Source of the DNA: a virus
Direction: 5' to 3' (one strand)
IMG/VR virus record: IMGVR_UViG_2974643820_000001
DNA length: 64,000 nucleotides
Shown here: in pieces, positions 1,498 to 53,241 of the stretch
Layout of the letters: every line of letters begins with the position of its first letter
Position numbering within the stretch: the first letter of the stretch is position 1
Notes under the pieces: model-generated
Told to the model about the DNA's origin: nothing
The model's database searches: none
What the model saw: only the letters and a program-made list of their open reading frames with translations
Translations under genes and position numbers: made by a program

Positions 1498-4229
1498 ATA
1501 ACGTCCAAGTAATCCGAAGAATTTTCAATCGGGTTCAGGGCGCTTGGTTTGTAGTTCTCTTTCAAGAACCGAATAACACGGTGTCGCTCGATGGTCAATC
1601 GATTGTCCCGCCTTGCCTTTAATGTCGGCGTCCGCGCAATATCGAATCGTGTAAACCCATGTGTTTGCAGGGCATCCGAAGCGTATCCAAAGATCTGCAA
1701 CATCTGGTGTTCTGAACGGAATATCTTTTCGTCGCGCTCGTTACTGTACAAATTCACGTTAAGAGAACTTATCGTGTCTTGGAAATGACTAAAACGACGT
1801 TTATCATGGATCGACACTGGGACTTTTGCCATGCTTTGATAATGGCGCACAGTCTGCTCATCTAAGATGTCGTCCACAACTCTCATTAACTTGTTGTAAC
1901 GTTTGACCAATTTGCCATAACGATCGTCTTCAACAACACCGAACGCCTGTTCAACCAGATGGATCCCATATTTCAATCGGTCAGCCCCAAGTCGCATACG
2001 GCGGTATGATTCCAGTATGCGCCTGGCGCTATCGCGCTCCATCATAGGCTTCACGTTTTCCAACATGATCTTCAGAATTTCATCGATCGGGATGAAGACT
2101 TCTGGGAACTTCTTCATCATCGGAACCGATTTACGACGAGCCAAGAATATTCTGTCGTGAATGTTCAGCATATCTTTGATGTACACAGGCTTGCCATCTT
2201 CATCCGCGTGAACGGCATGTTTGTACAGAGCCTCGCGGATGCCTCGCGCCGCAGCTGTGGTCAACGTTCTATCCATCACCTGGTGGATACACTCGTGGCC
2301 AGACACCTCAATGTAGACGATGCGCTCGCCCTTATTGATGATGTCAGAGATTTGTTCACCAGTCAGTTCTTCGTATTGGCGAATATCAAAATCACTTCTT
2401 GTGAACGGAAACAAACCAGGATCTTTGGTGACCGGAGGCGTGACATATGTCAGTTCATTCATGAACTTGACTTCAGCAGGCTCCAGCACCGCACCCAACC
2501 AATCCATGAACTTGTCGGCGAAGAACAGATAATCGATCGTCGTTTCTTCTTCGCCAATCCAGGACTTGAAGAAGTCATGAAGTTCTTGGGCATTCCTGAA
2601 CGCAGGGTTGTCCTTAGACTGGTTGCGCTTGGTGACATAAGAAGTGTTCGGTTTGGCCACGATGACCATCGTCCCTGTATCTTTCAGTTGCTTGATCTTC
2701 AGGTTACGAGCACGGACACTGTCTTCTACAACCACAGTAACATGTTGACCGCGATCAATCCACTTCTGGATTTCTGAAATGGTCAAAGTACTGGACTCAC
2801 CCCAGTCATAGAAGATCTCCATGGAGAACGGCGATGACAATTCATTGAACGGAGCGGTGTGGTCGTAGTCGCGGTCGATCTCAACAGGCAGCGGGTAACG
2901 GTAATATGAATCATGGAAGCGCTTGTCTGCCGGATATTCCTTTTCAACCATCTTGCGGAACCCGCTGCCGAACATTTCGCTCAGTTTCGCCTTCTCCATA
3001 TAGAGAGCAAGAGGACCGCGCTTACACGCCATCTCCAGGTCACGCATTTTATCCGTCAGGATTGCATTGGCGGTCTCTTTAAACTCCTCAGAGAGCGTCT
3101 CACGCGTAAATTCGTCATATGAGAGGTCTTCACGTGATGGCGGTACGTTCAGGGAACCGAGTTCGAAGAACGTATAGGACGACGGAAACTTGCTCATGAT
3201 GGAGGAAGTGTCTGGGTCCAGCTGATCCAGGTCAATCGGGTACGACACGCCACCCATCACAGCGTAATGGGTGTGGTCGTTGCCCTTCGGCTGGATGTAC
3301 GTGTTGTTGACCTTGAAATCGTAGCTGATGTCTTCCCAGCCGAAACGGTATGAAGCGTTCTCAACAACTGGACGTTGTTCAGGGCGCATGACACGACCAA
3401 GACGGACCAGTTCATCGGAGAACGCAGAGAAGCGAGCGTTCTTCACTGGGATCTTCACCGTCATGCCGTTGAATTCATCGGTGTCTTCCGGCTTAGGATC
3501 ACGGGTTTCAAGATCTTTGGTGATCAGATCGACCGTTGGGATGCGCTTGGCGTTCAGGTACATCAGGAAGCGATGGAGTTTGCCGTCCATGCGGCTTTCC
3601 ACAGTGAACGAATCCGATACCGCAAATGGTGATTTTGAACCAAGGCCGAACGCCCCGATCTGATCATCGTCTTCTTCCTTCGTACTGTGGAAGAGTGTCG
3701 TGTACAGGCCGGGTGAACGGATGATCTCGCCATCTTCACGGCGGAACACCAGAGACCCATTGTAGAACCCTGGGACGCCGATGACTTCAGCCGAGTCAGG
3801 GATCTCGTCTTCCTTCACGACCATGTTGCCTTCCAACAGCACTTCGTCTTCTTGGGCTGGGATGGCTTCGCCAATGATCTTCTCAAGCGGCAGGCCGATA
3901 CCGTAATCACGGATTTCCAGCCATGGCTCAAAGTCGTCAGGTAGATGCACGACAACTCGTGTGCCCTTCGGTGCAAGGTATTTGCCGTGACGGGCAGGAG
4001 GGGGAGTGAGAGGCGCGTAGTGGGATGCTACCATACGGTGCATACGATCACGCATGCCATGGGAGTCGATGGCGTTACAGGTGGTTTCACGCAGGGCTGC
4101 TGCCTCTTTGTAACGATATAATGATGAGAACAGAGTCTCAAACATCTTGTCGTTCATTTTGACGTTAAACGCCTGCCCCTGAATGGAAGACGACGAGCGG
4201 ATAAAGTGCTCGGACTTGCGCATTTTCAT
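1473..4229 (-). CDS. rIIA: rIIA protein, 918 aa
   Basis: N-terminal GHKL/HATPase motifs (RETTCNAIDS, IRDYGIGL, GAFGLGSKSPFA); adjacent to rIIB. Confidence 0.93.
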   Translation of the reverse strand: MKMRKSEHFIRSSSSIQGQAFNVKMNDKMFETLFSSLYRYKEAAALRETTCNAIDSHGMRDRMHRMVASHYAPLTPPPARHGKYLAPKGTRVVVHLPDDFEPWLEIRDYGIGLPLEKIIGEAIPAQEDEVLLEGNMVVKEDEIPDSAEVIGVPGFYNGSLVFRREDGEIIRSPGLYTTLFHSTKEEDDDQIGAFGLGSKSPFAVSDSFTVESRMDGKLHRFLMYLNAKRIPTVDLITKDLETRDPKPEDTDEFNGMTVKIPVKNARFSAFSDELVRLGRVMRPEQRPVVENASYRFGWEDISYDFKVNNTYIQPKGNDHTHYAVMGGVSYPIDLDQLDPDTSSIMSKFPSSYTFFELGSLNVPPSREDLSYDEFTRETLSEEFKETANAILTDKMRDLEMACKRGPLALYMEKAKLSEMFGSGFRKMVEKEYPADKRFHDSYYRYPLPVEIDRDYDHTAPFNELSSPFSMEIFYDWGESSTLTISEIQKWIDRGQHVTVVVEDSVRARNLKIKQLKDTGTMVIVAKPNTSYVTKRNQSKDNPAFRNAQELHDFFKSWIGEEETTIDYLFFADKFMDWLGAVLEPAEVKFMNELTYVTPPVTKDPGLFPFTRSDFDIRQYEELTGEQISDIINKGERIVYIEVSGHECIHQVMDRTLTTAAARGIREALYKHAVHADEDGKPVYIKDMLNIHDRIFLARRKSVPMMKKFPEVFIPIDEILKIMLENVKPMMERDSARRILESYRRMRLGADRLKYGIHLVEQAFGVVEDDRYGKLVKRYNKLMRVVDDILDEQTVRHYQSMAKVPVSIHDKRRFSHFQDTISSLNVNLYSNERDEKIFRSEHQMLQIFGYASDALQTHGFTRFDIARTPTLKARRDNRLTIERHRVIRFLKENYKPSALNPIENSSDYLDVISNSIVRA

Positions 4230-23056: not shown

Positions 23057-23303
23057 ATGCCACATCGATGGGATGGGTGGAAAGACTACACACTTCGCAC
23101 TGGTACTGCCTTATGGGAGAGCGCGTCAGGAGTCGAACCTGAAGTCGTCGGCGTAGAGAAAGCTATTTGCATTTCACTATCCTCGCCTCGATTTTCTTAA
23201 CTTCCTAAACACCCGATTACGAGAGAGTCGACATGCACATCTTCTAACTCTTCAGGAAGTCACGCCCAAAATATGATTTGCGATGATGGACCCATTCCAT
23301 CTG

Positions 23304-23369
23304 GGGCTGGGTGAGTGGGAGTTGAACCCACAACGCTTGGCTCGCTTTCCCTACCATTCAGGCCACCCA
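23304..23369 (-). pseudogene. degenerate tRNA-like element
   Basis: Acceptor TGGGTGG/TCACCCA and T-arm GTGGG-TTCAACT-CCCAC; no anticodon arm; ends GCCC, not NCCA. Confidence 0.4.
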
Positions 23370-23467
23370 ATTCCAGGAGGTAGAACACCTTTGCCGTCAG
23401 TGTCCATGCGCCAGTCTTCCGCCCTAGCCTCCACTCGCGTCTGGGATTTCCGCGATGATCGCAAATT

Positions 23468-23556
23468 TGGCGGAAGGTGAAGGATTCGAACCTTCGGGGC
23501 TTATAAGCCCCACTCGATTAGCAATCGAGTCCCTTAAACCTCTCGGGCAACCTTCC
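23468..23556 (-). tRNA. tRNA-Ser(GCT)
   Basis: Full class II cloverleaf; CTCGA-TTGCTAA-TCGAG anticodon arm; GGTTCGAATCC; encoded CCA. Confidence 0.95.
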
Positions 23557-23623
23557 AGTATTAGCCCCTCCCTGTCACCATCCAGGAATCCTGTAGGAAT
23601 CGAACCTACACGAGGGGGTTATT

Positions 23624-23707
23624 TGGAGCGGGAGAGCAGGATTCGAACCTGTCCAGTGATCGTCGCCGATGATCAGTCAGCTACTGGCCAACCCCTATGG
23701 CTCCCGC
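23624..23707 (-). ncRNA. tRNA-like RNA with Gly-type acceptor and no canonical anticodon arm
   Basis: GCGGGAG/CTCCCGC-T-CCA, T-loop TTCGAAT, non-canonical interior. Confidence 0.55.
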
Positions 23708-23815
23708 GAAATTAGGACGGGCTTCACACCCGATTGTGCATTTCATCTGCCCGTTTGAAGGGCGACCAGTGCCTTCTGGTCAGATACACAGCGTGGCTGC
23801 AACGCTTACTGTGTT

Positions 23816-23899
23816 TGGTGTGAGTGGATGGATTCGAACCACCGCGCTGTTACGGGGAGATTTACAGTCTCCTGCATTCGACCGCTCTGCCACACTCAC
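23816..23899 (-). tRNA. tRNA-Tyr(GTA)
   Basis: GGAGA-CTGTAAA-TCTCC anticodon arm; long variable arm; encoded CCA. Confidence 0.95.
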
Positions 23900-23902
23900 A
23901 TT

Positions 23903-23976
23903 TGGTCTACCGCTACGTGCTGGGCCACGCTCGAGGACATCGGCCATCCTTCCTCAGCTAATCCACGCAGCGGCAG
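23903..23976 (-). ncRNA. CCA-terminated long-stem RNA
   Basis: 13-bp stem CTGCCGCTGCGTG/CACGTAGCGGTAG followed by A-CCA; sits directly upstream of tRNA-Tyr. Confidence 0.5.
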
Positions 23977-24045
23977 ATTTGTTTCAGAGTGTCCGGTGTA
24001 GCAACCCGTGAGGTGCGCACTACTGTAGCCTCTACACTCTGAATT

Positions 24046-24150
24046 TGGTGGGCGTTACTATCGTCGTCTTCGGATTCCGTTCGGCTATTGGACAGAGGCT
24101 TGGAGCTTGTCGGTTGCGTACTTCGTGCCTATCCACTTTCGTTCACACCC
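24046..24150 (-). ncRNA. CCA-terminated ~105-nt RNA
   Basis: GGGTGT/ACGCCC-A-CCA terminal stem; no T-loop; directly downstream of tRNA-Asn. Confidence 0.5.
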
Positions 24151-24156
24151 ATTGTC

Positions 24157-24232
24157 TGGCGACGATGGCAGGACTTGAACCTGCGACATACGGTTTAACA
24201 GACCGCCGTTCTACCGACTGAACTACATCGTC
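24157..24232 (-). tRNA. tRNA-Asn(GTT)
   Basis: 76-nt canonical cloverleaf; GCGGT-CTGTTAA-ACCGT; encoded CCA. Confidence 0.95.
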
Positions 24233-24233
24233 T

Positions 24234-24431
24234 TTATCCGTGCTTGTTCGCTTCAATCGCCCTTAATTGGGCATCAGCGTCAGCTTTGGTGTCATGTGTC
24301 CCAAGAACCTTCGTCTTGGTGTGGTCAAGGACAACCCACTTGTCGCCTCGCCTTTCAACAAACTCGACAATCTCTTTGTTGTCAGTAGCGAGGCCATCCC
24401 ACTCAGCAATAAAATCACCGAACGTTTTCAT
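24234..24431 (-). CDS. putative internal head protein, 65 aa (MKTFGDFIAE|WDG...)
   Basis: T4 capsid-targeting-like N-terminus; own TAAATA late cassette. Confidence 0.75.
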   Translation of the reverse strand: MKTFGDFIAEWDGLATDNKEIVEFVERRGDKWVVLDHTKTKVLGTHDTKADADAQLRAIEANKHG

Positions 24432-24470
24432 CTTACTCACCAATTGTTTATTGAACAACTGGTTTATTTA
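24421..24470 (-). repeat. 50-bp late-promoter/RBS/start cassette, copy 1
   Basis: 46/50 identical to 24685-24734. Confidence 0.9.
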
Positions 24471-24695
24471 AACCCCGTACACGATGCCACGGCCTTTCGG
24501 TGTCTTACCATTACCGAACCATTTCCCTGTCATCTGAGCAGAGCCTGGTGTACTGGCAACAACAAATTCACTACCACCGTGACCTTCTTTGGTGAATTCG
24601 GCCTTTGGATTCTTCTTCAGGCAGACCTGTTTCCATTCATCAAAGTCATTGTATTCCTTGTTGGCTTCGGTCAGGAATTCTTTAAACGTTTTCAT
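24468..24695 (-). CDS. putative internal head protein, 75 aa (MKTFKEFLTE|ANK...)
   Basis: N-terminus matches T4 IPI MKTFKEF; own CTAAATA late cassette. Confidence 0.78.
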   Translation of the reverse strand: MKTFKEFLTEANKEYNDFDEWKQVCLKKNPKAEFTKEGHGGSEFVVASTPGSAQMTGKWFGNGKTPKGRGIVYGV

Positions 24696-24734
24696 GCTAC
24701 TCTCCAATTGTTTGTTGAACAACTGGTTTATTTA
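24685..24734 (-). repeat. 50-bp late-promoter/RBS/start cassette, copy 2
   Basis: 46/50 identical to 24421-24470. Confidence 0.9.
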
Positions 24735-25010
24735 GGTGCTCCCGAGGCGGCATTTCAATTCCGCGATCCCATCACGCCTGCCGTAGACCGGAGCTTGCTG
24801 GCAGTCCAACAATATTTGGTGTTCCCTGAGGGAGTCGAACCCCCAACTTCCGTTATTCTCAACAACCTTCCCCAGTCCGTGCAGTCTGGTACTCAGATGT
24901 CTACCTTCACGTTCGCCTGTATCCAAGCCTATCTCTTCATTTAACCTTACAGCCTCAATCTGCACGGGTGAAAGAGCTTCAGAGATACTGCCATACAACG
25001 GGAACAAAAC

Positions 25011-25113
25011 TGGCGGGGTCTGAGGCTTTTCACCTCACCTGCTGGGTTTGGCCGCCCAGCCGTTCTCTATGAGGATTCGCTGTCCGGACAGCTATCCCTT
25101 AAACTATCGCCCC
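25011..25113 (-). ncRNA. degenerate tRNA-like RNA ending GCCA
   Basis: GGGG/CCCC-G-CCA ends; TAGTTTAAGG D-loop-like start; TGAGG-TGAAAAG-CCTCA T-arm-like hairpin. Confidence 0.4.
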
Positions 25114-25119
25114 TCAATT

Positions 25120-25199
25120 TGGTTGGAGGAGAAGGATTCGAACCTTCAACGGCTGCCGCCATCCCCTCAGGGAATGTCTACCCCTTCCATCATCCTCCA
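25120..25199 (-). ncRNA. Leu-type class II tRNA-like RNA with collapsed anticodon arm
   Basis: Perfect acceptor TGGAGGA/TCCTCCA-A-CCA, T-arm, Leu-like D-arm and variable arm; anticodon arm is only TCCC-TGAG-GGGA. Confidence 0.65.
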
Positions 25200-25204
25200 A
25201 ATTA

Positions 25205-25950
25205 TTGTGTGACCAACCAAGGACTGTCAACCCTTTATCCCGTTTGTGCATGATCAGTTCATGCAGGCCTCTTTGTGCTGCCTCACGGCAACGCGCTTCT
25301 GCTGGTCATTGGCTTGCACCGTAGCCTCACAACAGGCGTTTATTTTTCCAGGGCTTTCCACTTGCAAGTCTTGACCATACAGGGATACGGGCTTGCAAGA
25401 TCGGGTTGGTAACAACTCTGATGGCTCTGAACGTTCTTTTCACTAGTCATCCACAACTGATATTCGGATGTCCAGAGCCATCAGAGTTGCAGCCAGGCTA
25501 CAACCCGCACTTCAGTGTCTTCGTCACACTTCGGCACTTGTCCTCTACGCTCGGACCAAACGAGGCTGGCCGACATAAACATAACACCACTCATCACTAG
25601 AGCGAGGATGTGGTTGATAGCCACGATGTATGCCTCTGTCGCAGAGTGATCACGCTTGTCAGGATGATCACTGTTTTGCAGTACCTGCCGCAAAGTAGAG
25701 TTCTCTGAACTTCAATGACCCCTCATCTTGTACTATCGCCGTCGGGAACGTTCACCATGTGAATCAAACCTTTAGGTTAAGTTCAATGTCCAGAGGACTC
25801 TACTTTGCGTTGTGGGGGCAAACCCCCACACGGCTACTTCTTTAACAGGGATTGCTAGCCCTGGGGATTCCACTGTTTAAGGCTTTATCCCATAACGCCT
25901 GAGGCGTGTTCTCAAACTAATAGAGTTTGCTTAATTGCAAACTGATGTGG
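25205..25950 (-). ncRNA. structured non-coding segment
   Basis: 17-bp IR 25413-25429/25473-25489; 11-bp IR 25690-25700/25798-25808; several hairpins; no credible RBS-led ORF. Confidence 0.5.
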
Positions 25951-25954
25951 CTAT

Positions 25955-26477
25955 GGGACACATCTGTGACGTATCTCTTATCCGGATTCGAACCGGATTT
26001 ATCCTGGCAGAGGAATCTAACCCCTTTACCTCGTGGCAACGAGGACGGTCAACAGACCTCAAGATACGTCACAGATGTGTTGCCCGTCACTTGCCAGAGA
26101 TCGGGGCGGATGGTAAGACTTCGCTCACATCTGGGAGGACACTGCTGTCGTTCGCGACCGACAACCACTCAGATATATTTCAATCATGTTGTGGTGCAAT
26201 GCCCTCTCAGATGTCGGCGGGAGCTTATTAATCACACCCTCCCGCCTATTGTTAGTGCGCCGAATTTTGTTATGAGGAGTCGGAAGACCTCACTGACTTA
26301 TAGGCTATTACGCCGCCATCAGAACTACATCATCGTTTGCATTTATTTTTGTGGTCTGTTTCTAAAAACCCGCAAAGTCACGCACAACGAAAACGAAAAC
26401 CTGTTTGAGCACAAGACGCCATGTCCTGGGTTCACATCGAAGTGTTTGTCTAGTGCCCAAACAGCTTTTCGTTCAGT
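25955..26477 (-). ncRNA. tmRNA-like structured RNA (3' end uncertain)
   Basis: Own promoter at 26484-26509; 21-bp helix; resume motif and tag frame; stop-codon hairpin; H-type pseudoknot; 19-bp helix enclosing a TTCGAAT T-arm. Confidence 0.55.
26305..26340 (-). other. tmRNA-type proteolysis tag reading frame ANDDVVLMAA**
   Basis: AAAAATAAAT|GCA AAC GAT GAT GTA GTT CTG ATG GCG GCG TAA TAG; ten codons, as in E. coli ANDENYALAA. Confidence 0.7.
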
Positions 26478-26510
26478 GGGTTAACTATACTTTGTAACCC
26501 GTTATTGACA
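26478..26510 (-). promoter_or_regulatory. promoter (TT)GTCAAT-N14-TATAGT with -10 in hairpin loop
   Basis: Same architecture as the TTCAAT-N14 class; GGGTTAC/GTTAACCC encloses the -10. Confidence 0.65.
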
Positions 26511-26519
26511 AAACTTTAA

Positions 26520-27140
26520 ATCTGCCGGAACTTACGCATCCGGCCTCGCCTGTTGGTGCTCCTTCGAATCCGGGAAGATCAGCAGGAACTATGAATCAAG
26601 TTAATTCGACCAACAGGAACCTTTGTGTTGCCCTTTGACGCAACATTATGAACCCTCTGTGAAGACTCATAATGTTGTCGGCGTGATGGAACCTGGCAGA
26701 TCCGACCTCCCCTATATGTTGGTGTCGACTTGCCAACGGGGTGCTCTCAAGCATCTGAGCTAATCACGCTACAACAGGGAGTTTCGTTCTCCGACGGTCA
26801 GTGCGTCCACTAACACCATGCAAGGTGGATATTCCGCCTCTATTCACACAAGCCCCTGAGACTAGGGGTTAACTGGTTTTGGGCTGCAAACCCGACTCCC
26901 ACTGTGCTGTTTCCCTCGTGTTTAATACTTTACCGCAGACCAGCTAATTTGAAAAGTCCTCTCCTCTTTGAGCTACACTGCCCACAGCAGTGCGGACGAA
27001 CCTTCACTCAAAACCGGATGCGCCGAAGTGGGCGACTGAGTACCGGACTGATCGGGTAGACCCAGGAGAGTAAAGGTAATCCCGATCAGGAGGATAAGGA
27101 GCAACATCATGTAAAACATAGTGTTCCCTCCCTTCCATGC
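26520..27140 (-). ncRNA. ~620-nt structured non-coding RNA candidate
   Basis: IRs at 26549-57/26609-17, 26641-51/26667-77, 27048-56/27081-89; terminator-like GCCGGA/TCCGGC hairpin at 26524-26544; no ORF of 60 aa or more. Confidence 0.55.
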
Positions 27141-27145
27141 AACTA

Positions 27146-27169
27146 ACTTTACTGCAATTCTGTATTGAA
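27146..27169 (-). promoter_or_regulatory. possible promoter TTCAAT-N12-TAAAGT for the large RNA
   Basis: TTCAAT present at 27164-27169 but spacer differs from the N14 consensus. Confidence 0.4.
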
Positions 27170-27176
27170 TAAAGCG

Positions 27177-27749
27177 TTAATTTAACACTTTTAACTTCAC
27201 ATCGCGCTCGAGCAGATACACATATTCGCGAGCGGCGGCCAGCGACATATAATGGGTGGACGGGATGCTGTGTTTGTTCAGCGTCTCTTTTAATTCAACG
27301 CGCTCAGCCCAACCATTAATGGATGTGCCGTAGAAGCCGATGATAGCCGCAAAATAAATGTTGCTAGTCTCAGGCTCCAGGATATAGTTCACCGTGAAGC
27401 ACACCTCGGAGCGGATTGCTTCAAGCTTGATGCCGACACGAGTGCTAGGATAGTCGTTGGCCACACATAAATGGCGGAAGCGGTCACGCCTGGCTTGTGA
27501 CGATTGCGTTAATTCGGATACCAATGTCGCCGTGGCATCGATATTAAAGGAGAAAGTGGAAGCCGTGTTCAAATCTGACTTTGCCCGATCTACCGCAGAT
27601 GGGGGAACACGGCGGAAATTGACTTCTTTACGTGTCAGGCGCTTCACTTCGGCGGATATATCTTCAAACGAAATATCCTTTGATTTCTTCCCTTCATATT
27701 TCTCTAATAAAGGAATGATATGTTTCGTGATGGCAGTGTTGATGTGCAT
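27177..27749 (-). CDS. hypothetical protein, 190 aa
   Basis: AAGGA RBS; perfect TTCAAT-N14-TATAAT promoter upstream. Confidence 0.85.
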   Translation of the reverse strand: MHINTAITKHIIPLLEKYEGKKSKDISFEDISAEVKRLTRKEVNFRRVPPSAVDRAKSDLNTASTFSFNIDATATLVSELTQSSQARRDRFRHLCVANDYPSTRVGIKLEAIRSEVCFTVNYILEPETSNIYFAAIIGFYGTSINGWAERVELKETLNKHSIPSTHYMSLAAAREYVYLLERDVKLKVLN

Positions 27750-51050: not shown

Positions 51051-53241
51051 TATAGAATATGCCCCGCTCAAGACGGGGTTCAAGATAGAAGACGTCAAAT
51101 TGCGTATGGACCAAACGTTCATGCGCAAGCCGTCTGTGCGCGCCCCTCGTGTCCAGTTGATGTTGACAGATGAGCAGGAAGATGAATTCGTCGAATGCGC
51201 GATGGATGCCCATTACTTCGCTGCCAACTACTACAAGATCACGACTATCGATAAAGGCTTCATCCTATTCGATATGCACGACTATCAGAAGCAGTTGTTC
51301 CATGACTTCCAGGATCACCGCTTCAACGCCGTTGTCCAGGCACGTCAGTCAGGTAAATGTGTGAAGGGTGACAGCATCGTCGAGGTCTACGACACAGTCA
51401 GCCAAGAAGAGTTTAAAGTCACCATCGAGGAGCTTCACAGCCGCTTCGAGGGACCGAACCACGCCGAGCCACTGAACGCCTTTGGCAAACACGATAAGTT
51501 CGTAGACAGCCGCTTCGGCAAGCGTTATTTCGTTCGCTGTGATATAGGCTGGGTGCCTGTCATCGCCGCGCACAAGACCAAGCAGTATCAGGAATATGTT
51601 GTCGTCACTTCCAGCGGCCGTCGTATCAACGTGGCCGATGATCACATGTTCTTCAATCAGAATATGAAGGAAGTGTTTGCCAAAGATCTGGTTGCTGGTT
51701 CACAGCTGATGACCGAAGAAGGTCTAGAAGAAGTCGTTGAGGTATGGCAGACTGGTGAGATGCACCACATGTATGACCTACAGGTGAAATCCAGCGACCA
51801 GCGCTACTACACCAACGGCTTCCTCAGTCATAACACGACTGTTGTGGCTGCGTTCCTTCTCTGGTATGCGATGTTCCACTCTGACAAAGAGATCGCGGTA
51901 CTGGCGAACAAAGAGAAGCAGGCGATTGAAATCCTTGACCGTATTCGTAAGGCGTATCAGGATTTGCCATTCTTCATCCAGCAGGGCTGTGAGAAGTTCG
52001 GCTCCACGCTCATCGAATTCGAGAACGGCTCGAAGATATACGCCTATGCAACATCTTCTGACTCCATCCGTGGTCGATCTGTATCGCTCCTGTATGTGGA
52101 CGAAGTGGCGTTCATCGAAAACGACTTTGAATTCTGGGAGTCAACATTCCCTGCGATTGCATCTGCAGAGACTTCACGTTGTATCCTGACCAGTACACCG
52201 AAAGGCCAGCGCGGGTTGTTCTACGACATCGTCACCAAGGCGAACCCAGAACATCCTCAGTACAACGACTTCAATCTCACAGAGGTTCCATGGTATCGTG
52301 TGCCAACATACACCAAGGATCCAAACTGGGAATCCAAGCAGAGGGCGAAGCTGGGCGATGCACGTTTCGATCAGGAATTTGGCATCAAGTTCCGTGGGTC
52401 GGTCGGTTCACTTATCCCGGCCAAGTGCCTGGACAAGATGACCTCGAAGCTGTATCAGGAGCCGAACGAGTTCACCAAGATCTATCACGACTACGATCCG
52501 AAGCGAATCTATATGGGTATCGCAGATACAGGCAAGGGCGTCGAGGGGGATTATTCTGTGCTGACCATTATCGACATCACAGACTATCCTCACAAGATCG
52601 CAGCCAAGTATCGAAACAACACGATACCTCCAATGATGTATGCGTACACAATCGCCGATATGGGCGAGAAGTATGGGACGTGTCCAATGTTGGTAGAAAC
52701 CAACAACGACGTGGGTGGACAGGTAATCACAATTCTATATCAGGAAATTGAATATCCAGAGATCATCTTCACCACAACAGATGCGAAGGGTACTGGTAAG
52801 CGAATCGGCGGTAGGCGGCCTGAACCTGGTATCAACACCAACAAGAAGGTGCGCACAAACGGCTGTGCCAACCTGAAAGCCCTGATCGAAAGGGAGATGC
52901 TGGTTGTTGACGATCAAGACACGATAGATGAACTCAGTACATTCGTATGGACTGGGACAAGGTATGAAGCCGATGATGGTTGTCATGATGACTGTGTAAT
53001 GCCTCTTGTGCTGTATGCATGGGCGGTGAAACAAGAATGGTTTAGTGACCTCACCAATTCCAGTATCTCAGTCGACATGAGAGGCCGCTTGTCTGCGATG
53101 GAAGAATCGCAGATGATGCCTTTCGGTGGTGTGTTGTCGGCTCCTGATCCGTTCTCTGTGGAGAGTGTGCCAGGATTTGGTGGCGTGCAGGTTTATGACG
53201 AACGTTCTGGCATGTCCATGGAAGAATGGCTGAGACGGTGA
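51031..53241 (+). CDS. gp17: terminase large subunit gp17 with intein, 736 aa
   Basis: ARQSGK|T Walker A; LLYVDEVAF Walker B; DDCVM nuclease motif. Confidence 0.95.
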   Translation: MAYQKRDIEYAPLKTGFKIEDVKLRMDQTFMRKPSVRAPRVQLMLTDEQEDEFVECAMDAHYFAANYYKITTIDKGFILFDMHDYQKQLFHDFQDHRFNAVVQARQSGKCVKGDSIVEVYDTVSQEEFKVTIEELHSRFEGPNHAEPLNAFGKHDKFVDSRFGKRYFVRCDIGWVPVIAAHKTKQYQEYVVVTSSGRRINVADDHMFFNQNMKEVFAKDLVAGSQLMTEEGLEEVVEVWQTGEMHHMYDLQVKSSDQRYYTNGFLSHNTTVVAAFLLWYAMFHSDKEIAVLANKEKQAIEILDRIRKAYQDLPFFIQQGCEKFGSTLIEFENGSKIYAYATSSDSIRGRSVSLLYVDEVAFIENDFEFWESTFPAIASAETSRCILTSTPKGQRGLFYDIVTKANPEHPQYNDFNLTEVPWYRVPTYTKDPNWESKQRAKLGDARFDQEFGIKFRGSVGSLIPAKCLDKMTSKLYQEPNEFTKIYHDYDPKRIYMGIADTGKGVEGDYSVLTIIDITDYPHKIAAKYRNNTIPPMMYAYTIADMGEKYGTCPMLVETNNDVGGQVITILYQEIEYPEIIFTTTDAKGTGKRIGGRRPEPGINTNKKVRTNGCANLKALIEREMLVVDDQDTIDELSTFVWTGTRYEADDGCHDDCVMPLVLYAWAVKQEWFSDLTNSSISVDMRGRLSAMEESQMMPFGGVLSAPDPFSVESVPGFGGVQVYDERSGMSMEEWLRR
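51358..51834 (+). mobile_element. mini-intein, 159 aa, in the TerL Walker A
   Basis: Begins CVKGDS, block B ADDHMF, ends YTNGFLSHN, followed by T; no LAGLIDADG motif. Confidence 0.92.

Follow-up and report, generated by a model that had tools for sequence, protein, structure and literature searches.

The window analysed here is the whole 64,000-nucleotide (nt) stretch of the IMG/VR virus record IMGVR_UViG_2974643820_000001. Its minus strand carries a core module of ~187 nt (positions 26402–26216) that is a headless derivative of transfer-messenger RNA (tmRNA, encoded by ssrA) and not itself a tmRNA. The module is a widespread phage RNA gene, and apparently an undescribed one. Read 5′ to 3′, it consists of an arm antisense to host tmRNA, a linker, a tag reading frame, a hairpin that holds the stop codons, and two pseudoknots. 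Judged by its similarity to tmRNA genes, the 3′ two-thirds of the module are a diverged sense copy of tmRNA from nt ~68 onward. The RNA may dock on host tmRNA and substitute its own tag template. A literature search yielded no published description of the element and none of its six commonest tag peptides.

The tag reading frame

The frame in the window is AAAAATAAAT|GCA AAC GAT GAT GTA GTT CTG ATG GCG GCG TAA TAG, which translates to ANDDVVLMAA; it has neither an ATG nor a Shine-Dalgarno sequence. The first-pass annotation, made from the letters of the window alone, had described this region as a tmRNA-like RNA with an ssrA-type tag template. That description holds, with respect to the ten-codon frame, the covarying helices that follow it, and the matches of a model of this region to the tag regions of tmRNA genes (see below).

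The context AUAAAU|GCA is found in the window and in most relatives. The A at position −4 was fixed by the search pattern, but eight relatives found by BLAST have it as well. The linker that precedes the resume codon is 22 nt long in these same eight relatives; in pattern-found loci its length was set by the search pattern. In E. coli tmRNA, U85 and A86 set the reading frame (PMC2481249).

A set of 129 loci was assembled from the relatives that were read and from a pattern scan of IMG/VR, among the matches listed. All 129 show exactly 10 codons from GCA to the stop, with no internal stop codon. There are 18 peptide variants, which fit AN[DE][DEN]xx[LM]x[AV]A; examples are ANDDVVLMAA, ANDDLMMVAA, ANEEMYLAVA, ANDEQFLAVA and ANDNTFLAVA. 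Synonymous third-position changes are seen at codons 2, 3, 7, 9 and 10 (GCG/GCC/GCT, CTG/TTG, AAC/AAT, GAT/GAC). The frame occurs in 34 distinct nucleotide versions. In these, codon 10 takes the form GCG, GCC or GCT, and CTG and TTG alternate at codon 7. Codons 5–8 are highly variable, none of them being a stop, and positions 6–8 are hydrophobic.

On this comparison the tag frame looks like a translated frame. The conservation of codons 7–10 is partly structural, since these codons lie in helix 5. A check for synonymous-only change in the tag and for helix covariation among relatives had been proposed from the window alone. The frame is kept, synonymous changes occur and the helices covary, but with 18 peptide variants change is not confined to synonymous positions.

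Covariation of the predicted helices

Fifty-one diverse copies were aligned, and a structure made up of helix 5, the two stems of the first pseudoknot and a single stem (stem 1) of the second was specified by hand. Paired cells amount to 91.7%, compared with 37%–43% when the partners are slid, and none of 500 shuffles equalled the observed value. Changes on both sides are present at 12 of the 20 tested pairs. Helix 5 is 100% paired, with both-sided changes at all four of its pairs. Stem 1 of the first pseudoknot is 98% paired; three of its pairs show both-sided changes, in 22, 21 and 12 sequences, and RNAalifold recovers it with 12–22 compensated sequences for each pair.

Stem 2 of the first pseudoknot is found as CCGA/UCGG, CCAG/CUGG, CCAA/UUGG and GUCG/CGAC. 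Variants of the second-pseudoknot stem include GCCC/GGGC, CGGCCCUGA/UCAGGGC and UCCCCGU/ACGGGGA. Because they are conserved with compensatory changes across the 51 diverse relatives, the tag, the hairpin and the pseudoknots exceed what chance would give. The first pseudoknot (26292–26260), directly after the stop hairpin, had been overlooked in the first reading of the window.

The second pseudoknot is the end of the conserved module. On its 3′ side the relatives diverge into different cassettes, and the aligned relatives show no conserved sequence there that could pair with the 5′ part of the module.

Helix 2 and pseudoknot 1 of tmRNA are not present; the antisense arm stands in their place. 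A pairing resembling pseudoknot 1, between UUUGCGG and the module's own CCACAAA, was considered, as was the RNAalifold pairing UGCG/UGCA. The columns are invariant or mismatched and display no covariation, and both were rejected, being kept as a weak cis hairpin.

Relationship to tmRNA

A covariance model, termed R1, was made from the linker, the tag, helix 5 and the first pseudoknot, with the arm left out. It was used to search 66 loci with real tmRNA genes (~577 kb). R1 matches the tag region in 50 of the 66 tmRNA loci, in all cases with full-length alignments, and shows no match elsewhere in the 577 kb. Ten of the matches were checked by hand; they lie inside the tmRNA gene on the right strand and start at nt 67–72. 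The first base of the module linker is aligned to host nt ~68. The scores on tmRNA genes are weak, 14–23 bits, compared with 122.6 bits for the single copy in the window.

As had been anticipated from the window alone, standard finders overlook the element: ARAGORN with default settings and Rfam at gathering thresholds report no tmRNA at the module. The one-piece and two-piece tmRNA models that had been proposed as a check give a divided result. The one-piece model (RF00023) finds nothing at the module; its sole match in the region at E ≤ 10 has 11.3 bits and lies outside, at 24828–24844. The permuted model (RF04321, tmRNA_permuted) gives a sub-threshold match of 29.4 bits (gathering score 47), driven by the resume region: the alignment rests on CAGAcCAcAAAaAUAAAU|GCAAACGAU...GCgGCgUAA and leaves out practically all of the model's tRNA-like part. 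Sub-threshold tmRNA_permuted matches of 25–34 bits are also seen in P1, Sf11 and EC1-UPM. GOLLD and ROOL, large phage RNAs considered for their proximity to tRNA genes, have no Rfam match here.

The absence of a G3:U70 acceptor with CCA, noted in the first-pass annotation, was confirmed in a custom scan of 23300–27300, where none of the 8 T-arms found has a G3:U70 acceptor. The same annotation had also proposed a rearranged or vestigial tRNA-like domain and, as an option, a separate tRNA-like partner from the adjacent array; neither was upheld. No alanine-type acceptor is present in the island, and no consistent one is found near the 129 listed relatives, where loose candidates at 25 loci are chance partners of ordinary tRNA 3′ ends. 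ARAGORN at 70%–80% thresholds does call a permuted tRNA-like domain (‘tmRNAp’, with correct tags), but the tRNA-like parts are inconsistent and many nonsense tags are produced, and this candidate was rejected.

As to the upstream hairpin, its T-arm-like CAC-TTCGAT-GTG does exist, but it has merely a 3-bp stem and a 6-nt loop and, among the loci read, is confined to Vi1-like phages. In T1-like relatives the hairpin is absent and a sigma-70 promoter, TTGACA-17-TAGATT, lies directly 5′ of the conserved core, which marks the window's hairpin and pseudo-T-arm as lineage-specific. The downstream T-arm, TCCGG-TTCGAAT-CCGGA at 25997–25981, belongs to a separate cassette enclosed by the perfect 19-bp helix. 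It has no acceptor stem and no CCA, and the cassette is missing from many Vi1-like relatives, including Vi01.

The module shares with one-piece tmRNA (RF00023) the A-rich linker with U at −5 and A at −4, the GCA resume codon without AUG or Shine-Dalgarno sequence, the 10-codon AND...AA tag, the stops in the helix-5 loop and the H-type pseudoknots after it. It differs in that the acceptor stem, G3:U70, T-arm, CCA, helix 2 and pseudoknot 1 are lacking, in its length (~187 nt vs. 363 nt), in having two downstream pseudoknots where real tmRNAs of the Enterobacterales clade have three, and in its 5′ arm antisense to host tmRNA, which is in no tmRNA.

The permuted tmRNAs (RF04321, RF01849, RF01850, RF01851) resemble the module in that the tag template is on an RNA that needs to pair with the RNA bearing the tRNA-like part, and the resume context UAAAU|GCAAACGAU of the module is similar to the permuted consensus, the best Rfam match. 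A permuted tmRNA, however, is made as a single precursor that yields both pieces, and its 5′ acceptor strand is part of the coding piece. The module has no acceptor strand and is predicted to pair with a complete host tmRNA, in the template region of the latter.

Phage-borne tmRNA derivatives are known. A 2014 survey found phage ssrA in mycobacteriophages and Bacillus phage G only, with none in enterobacterial phages, and the mycobacteriophage DS6A has a form with the tRNA-like domain only, which is thought to interfere with host trans-translation (PMC4131195). RefSeq viruses were screened in a 2025 tmRNA survey (PMC11915505). The module resembles the DS6A form and the complete phage tmRNAs in being a tmRNA derivative carried by phages, but it is the converse of the DS6A form, which keeps the tRNA-like half without a template.

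The antisense arm

Of the parts of the module that the search pattern left free, the arm is the most conserved; its blocks are, in order, GUUUUCG, a variable linker, GCGAC, UUUGCGG and a run of U. Its relationship to host tmRNA had been overlooked in the first reading. Compared with the E. coli K-12 ssrA reference (...GUAAAAAGCCGCAAAAAAUAGUC|GCAAACGACGAAAACUAC...), the arm is colinearly antisense to host nt 68–107, a span that starts in the loop and 3′ strand of pseudoknot 1, takes in the resume codon and ends at codon 6. UAGUUUUCGU pairs with host ACGAAAACUA (codons 2–6), GCGAC with host GUCGC (−3 to +2), and UUUGCGG(U)UUUUUA with host UAAAAAGCCGCAAA (pseudoknot 1 loop and 3′ strand). Host nt 79–107 are the single-stranded template region in the accepted tmRNA structure.

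The predicted duplex of the window arm with E. coli K-12 tmRNA has 34 bp and −37.9 kcal/mol, and none of 200 shuffles is as good. Arms taken with the U-run give 29–35 bp, −33 to −40 kcal/mol and z of −2.4 to −6.2, with 0–3 of 200 shuffles as good. In 35 of 35 arm variants the best RNAduplex site on E. coli tmRNA overlaps nt 74–98. Perfect Watson-Crick runs are 7–11 nt against the host and 5–7 nt against the module's own tag region.

The lineage variants of the arm (UAGUUUUCGU, GUUUUCGUC, GCGAUUAU and UCGUCGU) each complement host sequence, extending or re-registering the match. The N4-like arm GCGAUUAU pairs with host AUAGUCGC, the P1 and lambdoid arm GUUUUCGUC pairs with host GACGAAAAC, and in Vi1-like phages the arm gains UCGUU or UCGUCGU. 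Read by hand, the substitutions within GCGAC are mostly wobble-compatible transitions, a pattern that a general transition bias could also yield. Among the tmRNA genes fetched from Enterobacterales and Pasteurellaceae, most show hardly any change in the host target. The arm of the Erwinia phage pairs at the nt 67–107 site on Erwinia, Pantoea and Serratia tmRNAs in a search limited to nt 56–125.

The geometry of the proposed duplex can be compared with that of the host RNA. The arm's last paired base faces host U68, and 22 nt then lead to the phage GCA; host nt 68–89 are also 22 nt. By hand alignment 12 of the 22 linker positions are identical to the host's. This geometry suggests a module built of two copies of host sequence, first nt 68–107 in antisense and then nt 68–~220 in a diverged sense form. 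On sequence comparison, the arm has kept its match to the host, and the sense copy reads as having lost its pairing with the arm through drift.

In the arm of one relative, an IMG/VR contig, UAGUUUUCG is replaced by UAUUUUUCG, which exactly complements the template variant CGAAAAAUA seen in Photorhabdus and Xenorhabdus tmRNAs (relative L066; tmRNA loci L161 and L201). It could represent host tracking or a chance singleton. Two loose pattern scans of viral contigs for arms matching Pasteurellaceae or Yersinia templates gave random matches, none with a tag frame among the matches listed.

Distribution among phages and E. coli genomes

The module is found in 451–738 phage records, the tag region having BLAST relatives in 451. 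The phages are unrelated enterobacterial ones: Vi1-like, P1, lambdoid, T1-like, N4-like and SE131-like. Loci were read in P1, Sf11 (T1-like), EC1-UPM and KpCHEMY26 (N4-like), SE131, Erwinia phage Ea2809, Vi01 and HK633 (lambdoid). The P1 copy lies between dmt and tRNA-Asn/Thr, and the HK633 copy between pR′ and the holin gene.

The module is carried by 655 of 5426 complete E. coli genomes (~12%), with 150 places on chromosomes and 553 on plasmids. No feature is annotated at most of the listed places, and a few are under ‘hypothetical protein’. The P1-type copy is covered, at a depth similar to that of its neighbours, by contigs from four E. coli RNA-seq studies; assembled contigs of this kind cannot show the ends, strand or level of an RNA. 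Runs that contain the window's stretch are mostly wastewater libraries, in which it occurs as contigs.

Proposed function and alternatives

The conserved 5′ arm antisense to host tmRNA points to host tmRNA as the partner. The reading favoured here, with confidence a little short of even, is that the phage RNA docks on the tmRNA of the host and puts its own tag template in place of the host's. The module RNA would be transcribed and its arm would anneal to host tmRNA, clamping the host's own template. The phage linker would leave the duplex at host nt 68, which would place the phage resume codon at the host's own 22-nt distance. Alanyl-tmRNA-SmpB would still enter stalled ribosomes, and translation would resume on the phage template, so that rescued proteins would carry the phage tag (AANDDVVLMAA in the window) in place of AANDENYALAA. 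The net result would be a virus-host chimeric two-piece tmRNA. That many enterobacterial phages (P1, lambdoid, T1-like, N4-like, Vi1-like) encode template cassettes of this kind, each appending a phage-specified tag, is a broader proposal and is put forward with more doubt.

Several observations weigh against docking. The best duplex of the Erwinia phage arm on whole E. coli tmRNA is elsewhere, at nt 119–183 (z = −1.0), and the duplex-energy z is modest in some lineages (−2.4 for P1). The host targets barely vary, which leaves too little variation to reveal arm-host covariation. A weaker cis hairpin of 12–17 bp is predicted between the arm and its own linker and resume codon. The upstream helix of Vi1-like phages, the window among them, ties up the first 11 nt of the arm. 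Docking also needs helix 4 of host pseudoknot 1 to be opened. The conservation of codons 9–10 is partly accounted for by helix 5, and the complementarity of the arm could descend from an inverted duplication of the tmRNA tag region.

The main rival, which we consider unlikely, is that the RNA is an antisense blocker only: the arm would shut off tagging or trans-translation, and the unread frame would be kept by constraints on RNA structure or by recent descent. The arm-host complementarity fits a blocker as it fits docking. The GC of codon 10 and the placement of codons 7–8 in helix 5 make some of the apparent coding conservation structural, and the DS6A RNA, reported to inhibit tmRNA (PMC4131195), is a precedent for inhibition by phages. 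A 30-nt antisense RNA would suffice for this purpose, yet ~150 nt of tag-region anatomy is kept in at least six phage lineages. The frame length is invariant, none of the 34 distinct sequences has a stop in the four highly variable codons, hydrophobic residues persist at the variable positions, and U−5/A−4 and the 22-nt spacing are retained. These same coding-type constraints are left unexplained if the module is a self-contained structural cassette or relic, whose arm serves only a cis hairpin (e.g. as a processing or stability element of a tRNA operon) and whose likeness to the host is inherited. In minimum-free-energy folds the arm does pair with CAAAG, UGC and ACGA of its own module, the N4-like arm GCGAUUAUG likewise fits CAUAAAUGC of the same module, and the modules are found in mosaic arrays separated by long helices that are possible RNase III sites. 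The arm is nevertheless complementary to the host over 29–35 bp, vs. 12–17 bp for its own partner; the first block matches at 10 of 10 positions vs. 4 of 10, and it is invariant in 27 of 28 variants though the module's own codons 3–6 have diverged. This explanation is held to be improbable.

Equally improbable is a protein decoy, an idea that the first-pass annotation had raised for SmpB and ribosomes: a mimic that soaks up S1, the SmpB tail, RNase R or Hfq, or that occupies ribosomes, with no tmRNA pairing. It would account for the retained pseudoknots and A-rich linker, but an invariant arm that matches host codons 3–6 and not its own remains unexplained, as does the strict 10-codon frame. 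SmpB binds mainly the tRNA-like domain of tmRNA, and that domain is absent from the module. Still less probable is the coding piece of a phage two-piece tmRNA with a phage-encoded acceptor, whether from a neighbouring T-arm cassette or from an upstream permuted domain. The best Rfam match is to permuted tmRNA, the RNA islands also contain tRNA genes and tRNA-like cassettes (some with encoded CCA), a T-arm bearing the T-loop of host tmRNA lies just upstream in KpCHEMY26, and the ‘tmRNAp’ calls of relaxed ARAGORN carry correct tags. The same relaxed calls include many nonsense tags, however, and the acceptor searches described above give no G3:U70 in the window island and only chance partners at the 25 of 129 listed loci. 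Flanking cassettes differ between phages, T1-like phages have the promoter directly upstream and ordinary tRNAs alone downstream, and the arm's match to host tmRNA would be left unexplained.

Trans-translation is the chief route of ribosome rescue and quality control in bacteria, and we know of no virus that supplies the template half of tmRNA alone or that targets host tmRNA by base-pairing. If docking is true, it would be a new route of viral takeover, re-programming the tag on rescued proteins and hence which proteases and adaptors see them. It would be acting in long-studied model phages (P1, lambdoid prophages) and in ~12% of complete E. coli genomes, would account for part of the conserved ‘non-coding’ islands beside phage tRNA genes, and would offer synthetic biology a natural, portable means of rewriting ssrA tags. 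Even as a blocker alone, the module would be the first antisense regulator of tmRNA. AgvB and AsxR, anti-sRNAs (antagonists of small RNAs, sRNAs) of enterohemorrhagic E. coli prophages, are phage RNAs that base-pair with an abundant host regulatory RNA, and some anti-sRNAs are in the lambdoid late-leader region, as are some copies of the module. These are short sponges without a coding-type template, which the module has, and to our knowledge no anti-sRNA of this kind targets tmRNA.

The locus and neighbouring RNA elements

This region of the window has 99.5% identity to Shigella phage Ag3 (Ackermannviridae). The module sits in a ~3.5-kb stretch with few plausible open reading frames, which also contains four tRNA genes on the minus strand (ARAGORN). 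The Ag3 genome paper reports only four tRNAs (PMC3121705). Table 1 lists the features; the promoter, upstream helix, tag frame, stop hairpin, second pseudoknot, composite helix and 19-bp helix are all where the first-pass annotation had placed them.

Table 1. Features of the tag module and its surroundings in the window
Feature	Positions	Strand	Remarks
Antisense arm	26363–26402	−	complementary to host tmRNA nt 68–107; blocks GGUUUUCGU(U), GUGAC, UUUGCGG, UUUUUA
Single-stranded linker, 22 nt	26341–26362	−	GAAACAGACCACAAAAAUAAAU; U at −5 and A at −4 of resume codon
Tag reading frame and stops	26305–26340	−	GCA...GCG 26340–26311; TAA 26310–26308; TAG 26307–26305
Helix 5 equivalent	26293–26322	−	CUGAU/GUCAG, inner GGC/GCC, stops in loop
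First pseudoknot 3′ of tag	26260–26292	−	UGAGG/CCUCA and CCGA/UCGG; directly after stop hairpin
Second pseudoknot	26216–26259	−	CGCACU/GGUGUG (26259–54/26238–33) and GGCGGGAG/CUCCCGCC (26246–39/26223–16; DNA GGCGGGAG/CTCCCGCC)
Predicted sigma-70-type promoter	26484–26511	−	TTGTCA-16-TATAGT; 10 of 12 consensus positions
Lineage-specific 5′ closing helix with small internal hairpins	26392–26473	−	arms 26473–26448/26417–26392, 26 nt, 88% complementary
Separate long-stem cassette (composite helix)	26122–26219	−	26219–26196 with 26145–26122; outside tag module
Separate cassette, perfect 19-bp helix	25958–26080	−	26080–26062 with 25976–25958
Weak terminator-like hairpin 3′ of cassettes	25924–25943	−	

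The 3′ strand of the 5′ closing helix overlaps the first 11 nt of the antisense arm. Vi01 keeps this helix; T1-like, P1 and lambdoid relatives lack it, and in N4-like phages another helix takes its place. The composite helix is of a type, CAGGUAAGRGC...GCUCUUUCCNG, that brackets other cassettes in P1, HK633 and EC1-UPM.

A recurring long-helix type, ACAACAGGTAAGRGC ... GCYCTTWCCGTTGTG, brackets successive cassettes in phage RNA islands (P1 locus 1660–1760 and 2120–2220; HK633 locus 1400–1480 and 1650–1760; window 26219–26122). Some of these helices enclose a T-arm followed by NAAG. The bracketing helices may be RNase III processing sites or shuffling junctions.

Other RNA elements are seen on the minus strand of the island. 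A second strong sigma-70-type promoter (25230–25201, TTGACA-18-AATAAT, 11 of 12 matches) is directly upstream of tRNA-Ser(tga). A tRNA-like element of ~185 nt at 25005–24818, uncalled by ARAGORN, has the T-arm GGGGG-TTCGACT-CCCTC (24844–24828), then AGGGAAC-A-CCA, with a 6-bp acceptor partner GTTCCC near 25005; its T-arm and 3′ end are the region's sole RF00023 match (11 bits). Two mini tRNA-shaped elements each have a 7-bp acceptor without G3:U70 and a T-arm, with little between the two. One is at 23644–23586 (GAATCCT...GTAGG-TTCGATT-CCTAC-AGGATTC). The other, at 23369–23300 (TGGGTGG...GTGGG-TTCAACT-CCCAC-TCACCCA), has the T-loop of host tmRNA.

ARAGORN also gives a tRNA-Asp with the unusual anticodon ATC at 51439–51526 (minus strand), distant from the tRNA island. 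The Rfam tRNA model does not report it at gathering score, and it may be a false call.

The EC1-UPM locus (N4-like) contains at 1900–2300 several tRNA-shaped genes with encoded A-CCA that default ARAGORN overlooks. One has the acceptor TCCGGTG/CGCCGGA, and another has ~130 nt between TACCAGT and ACTGGTA. Sub-threshold matches to Rfam STnc100, a Salmonella sRNA family, are found downstream in the islands, at 2891–3011 of the P1 locus (33.9 bits) and at 2658–2745 of the EC1-UPM locus (22.4 bits).

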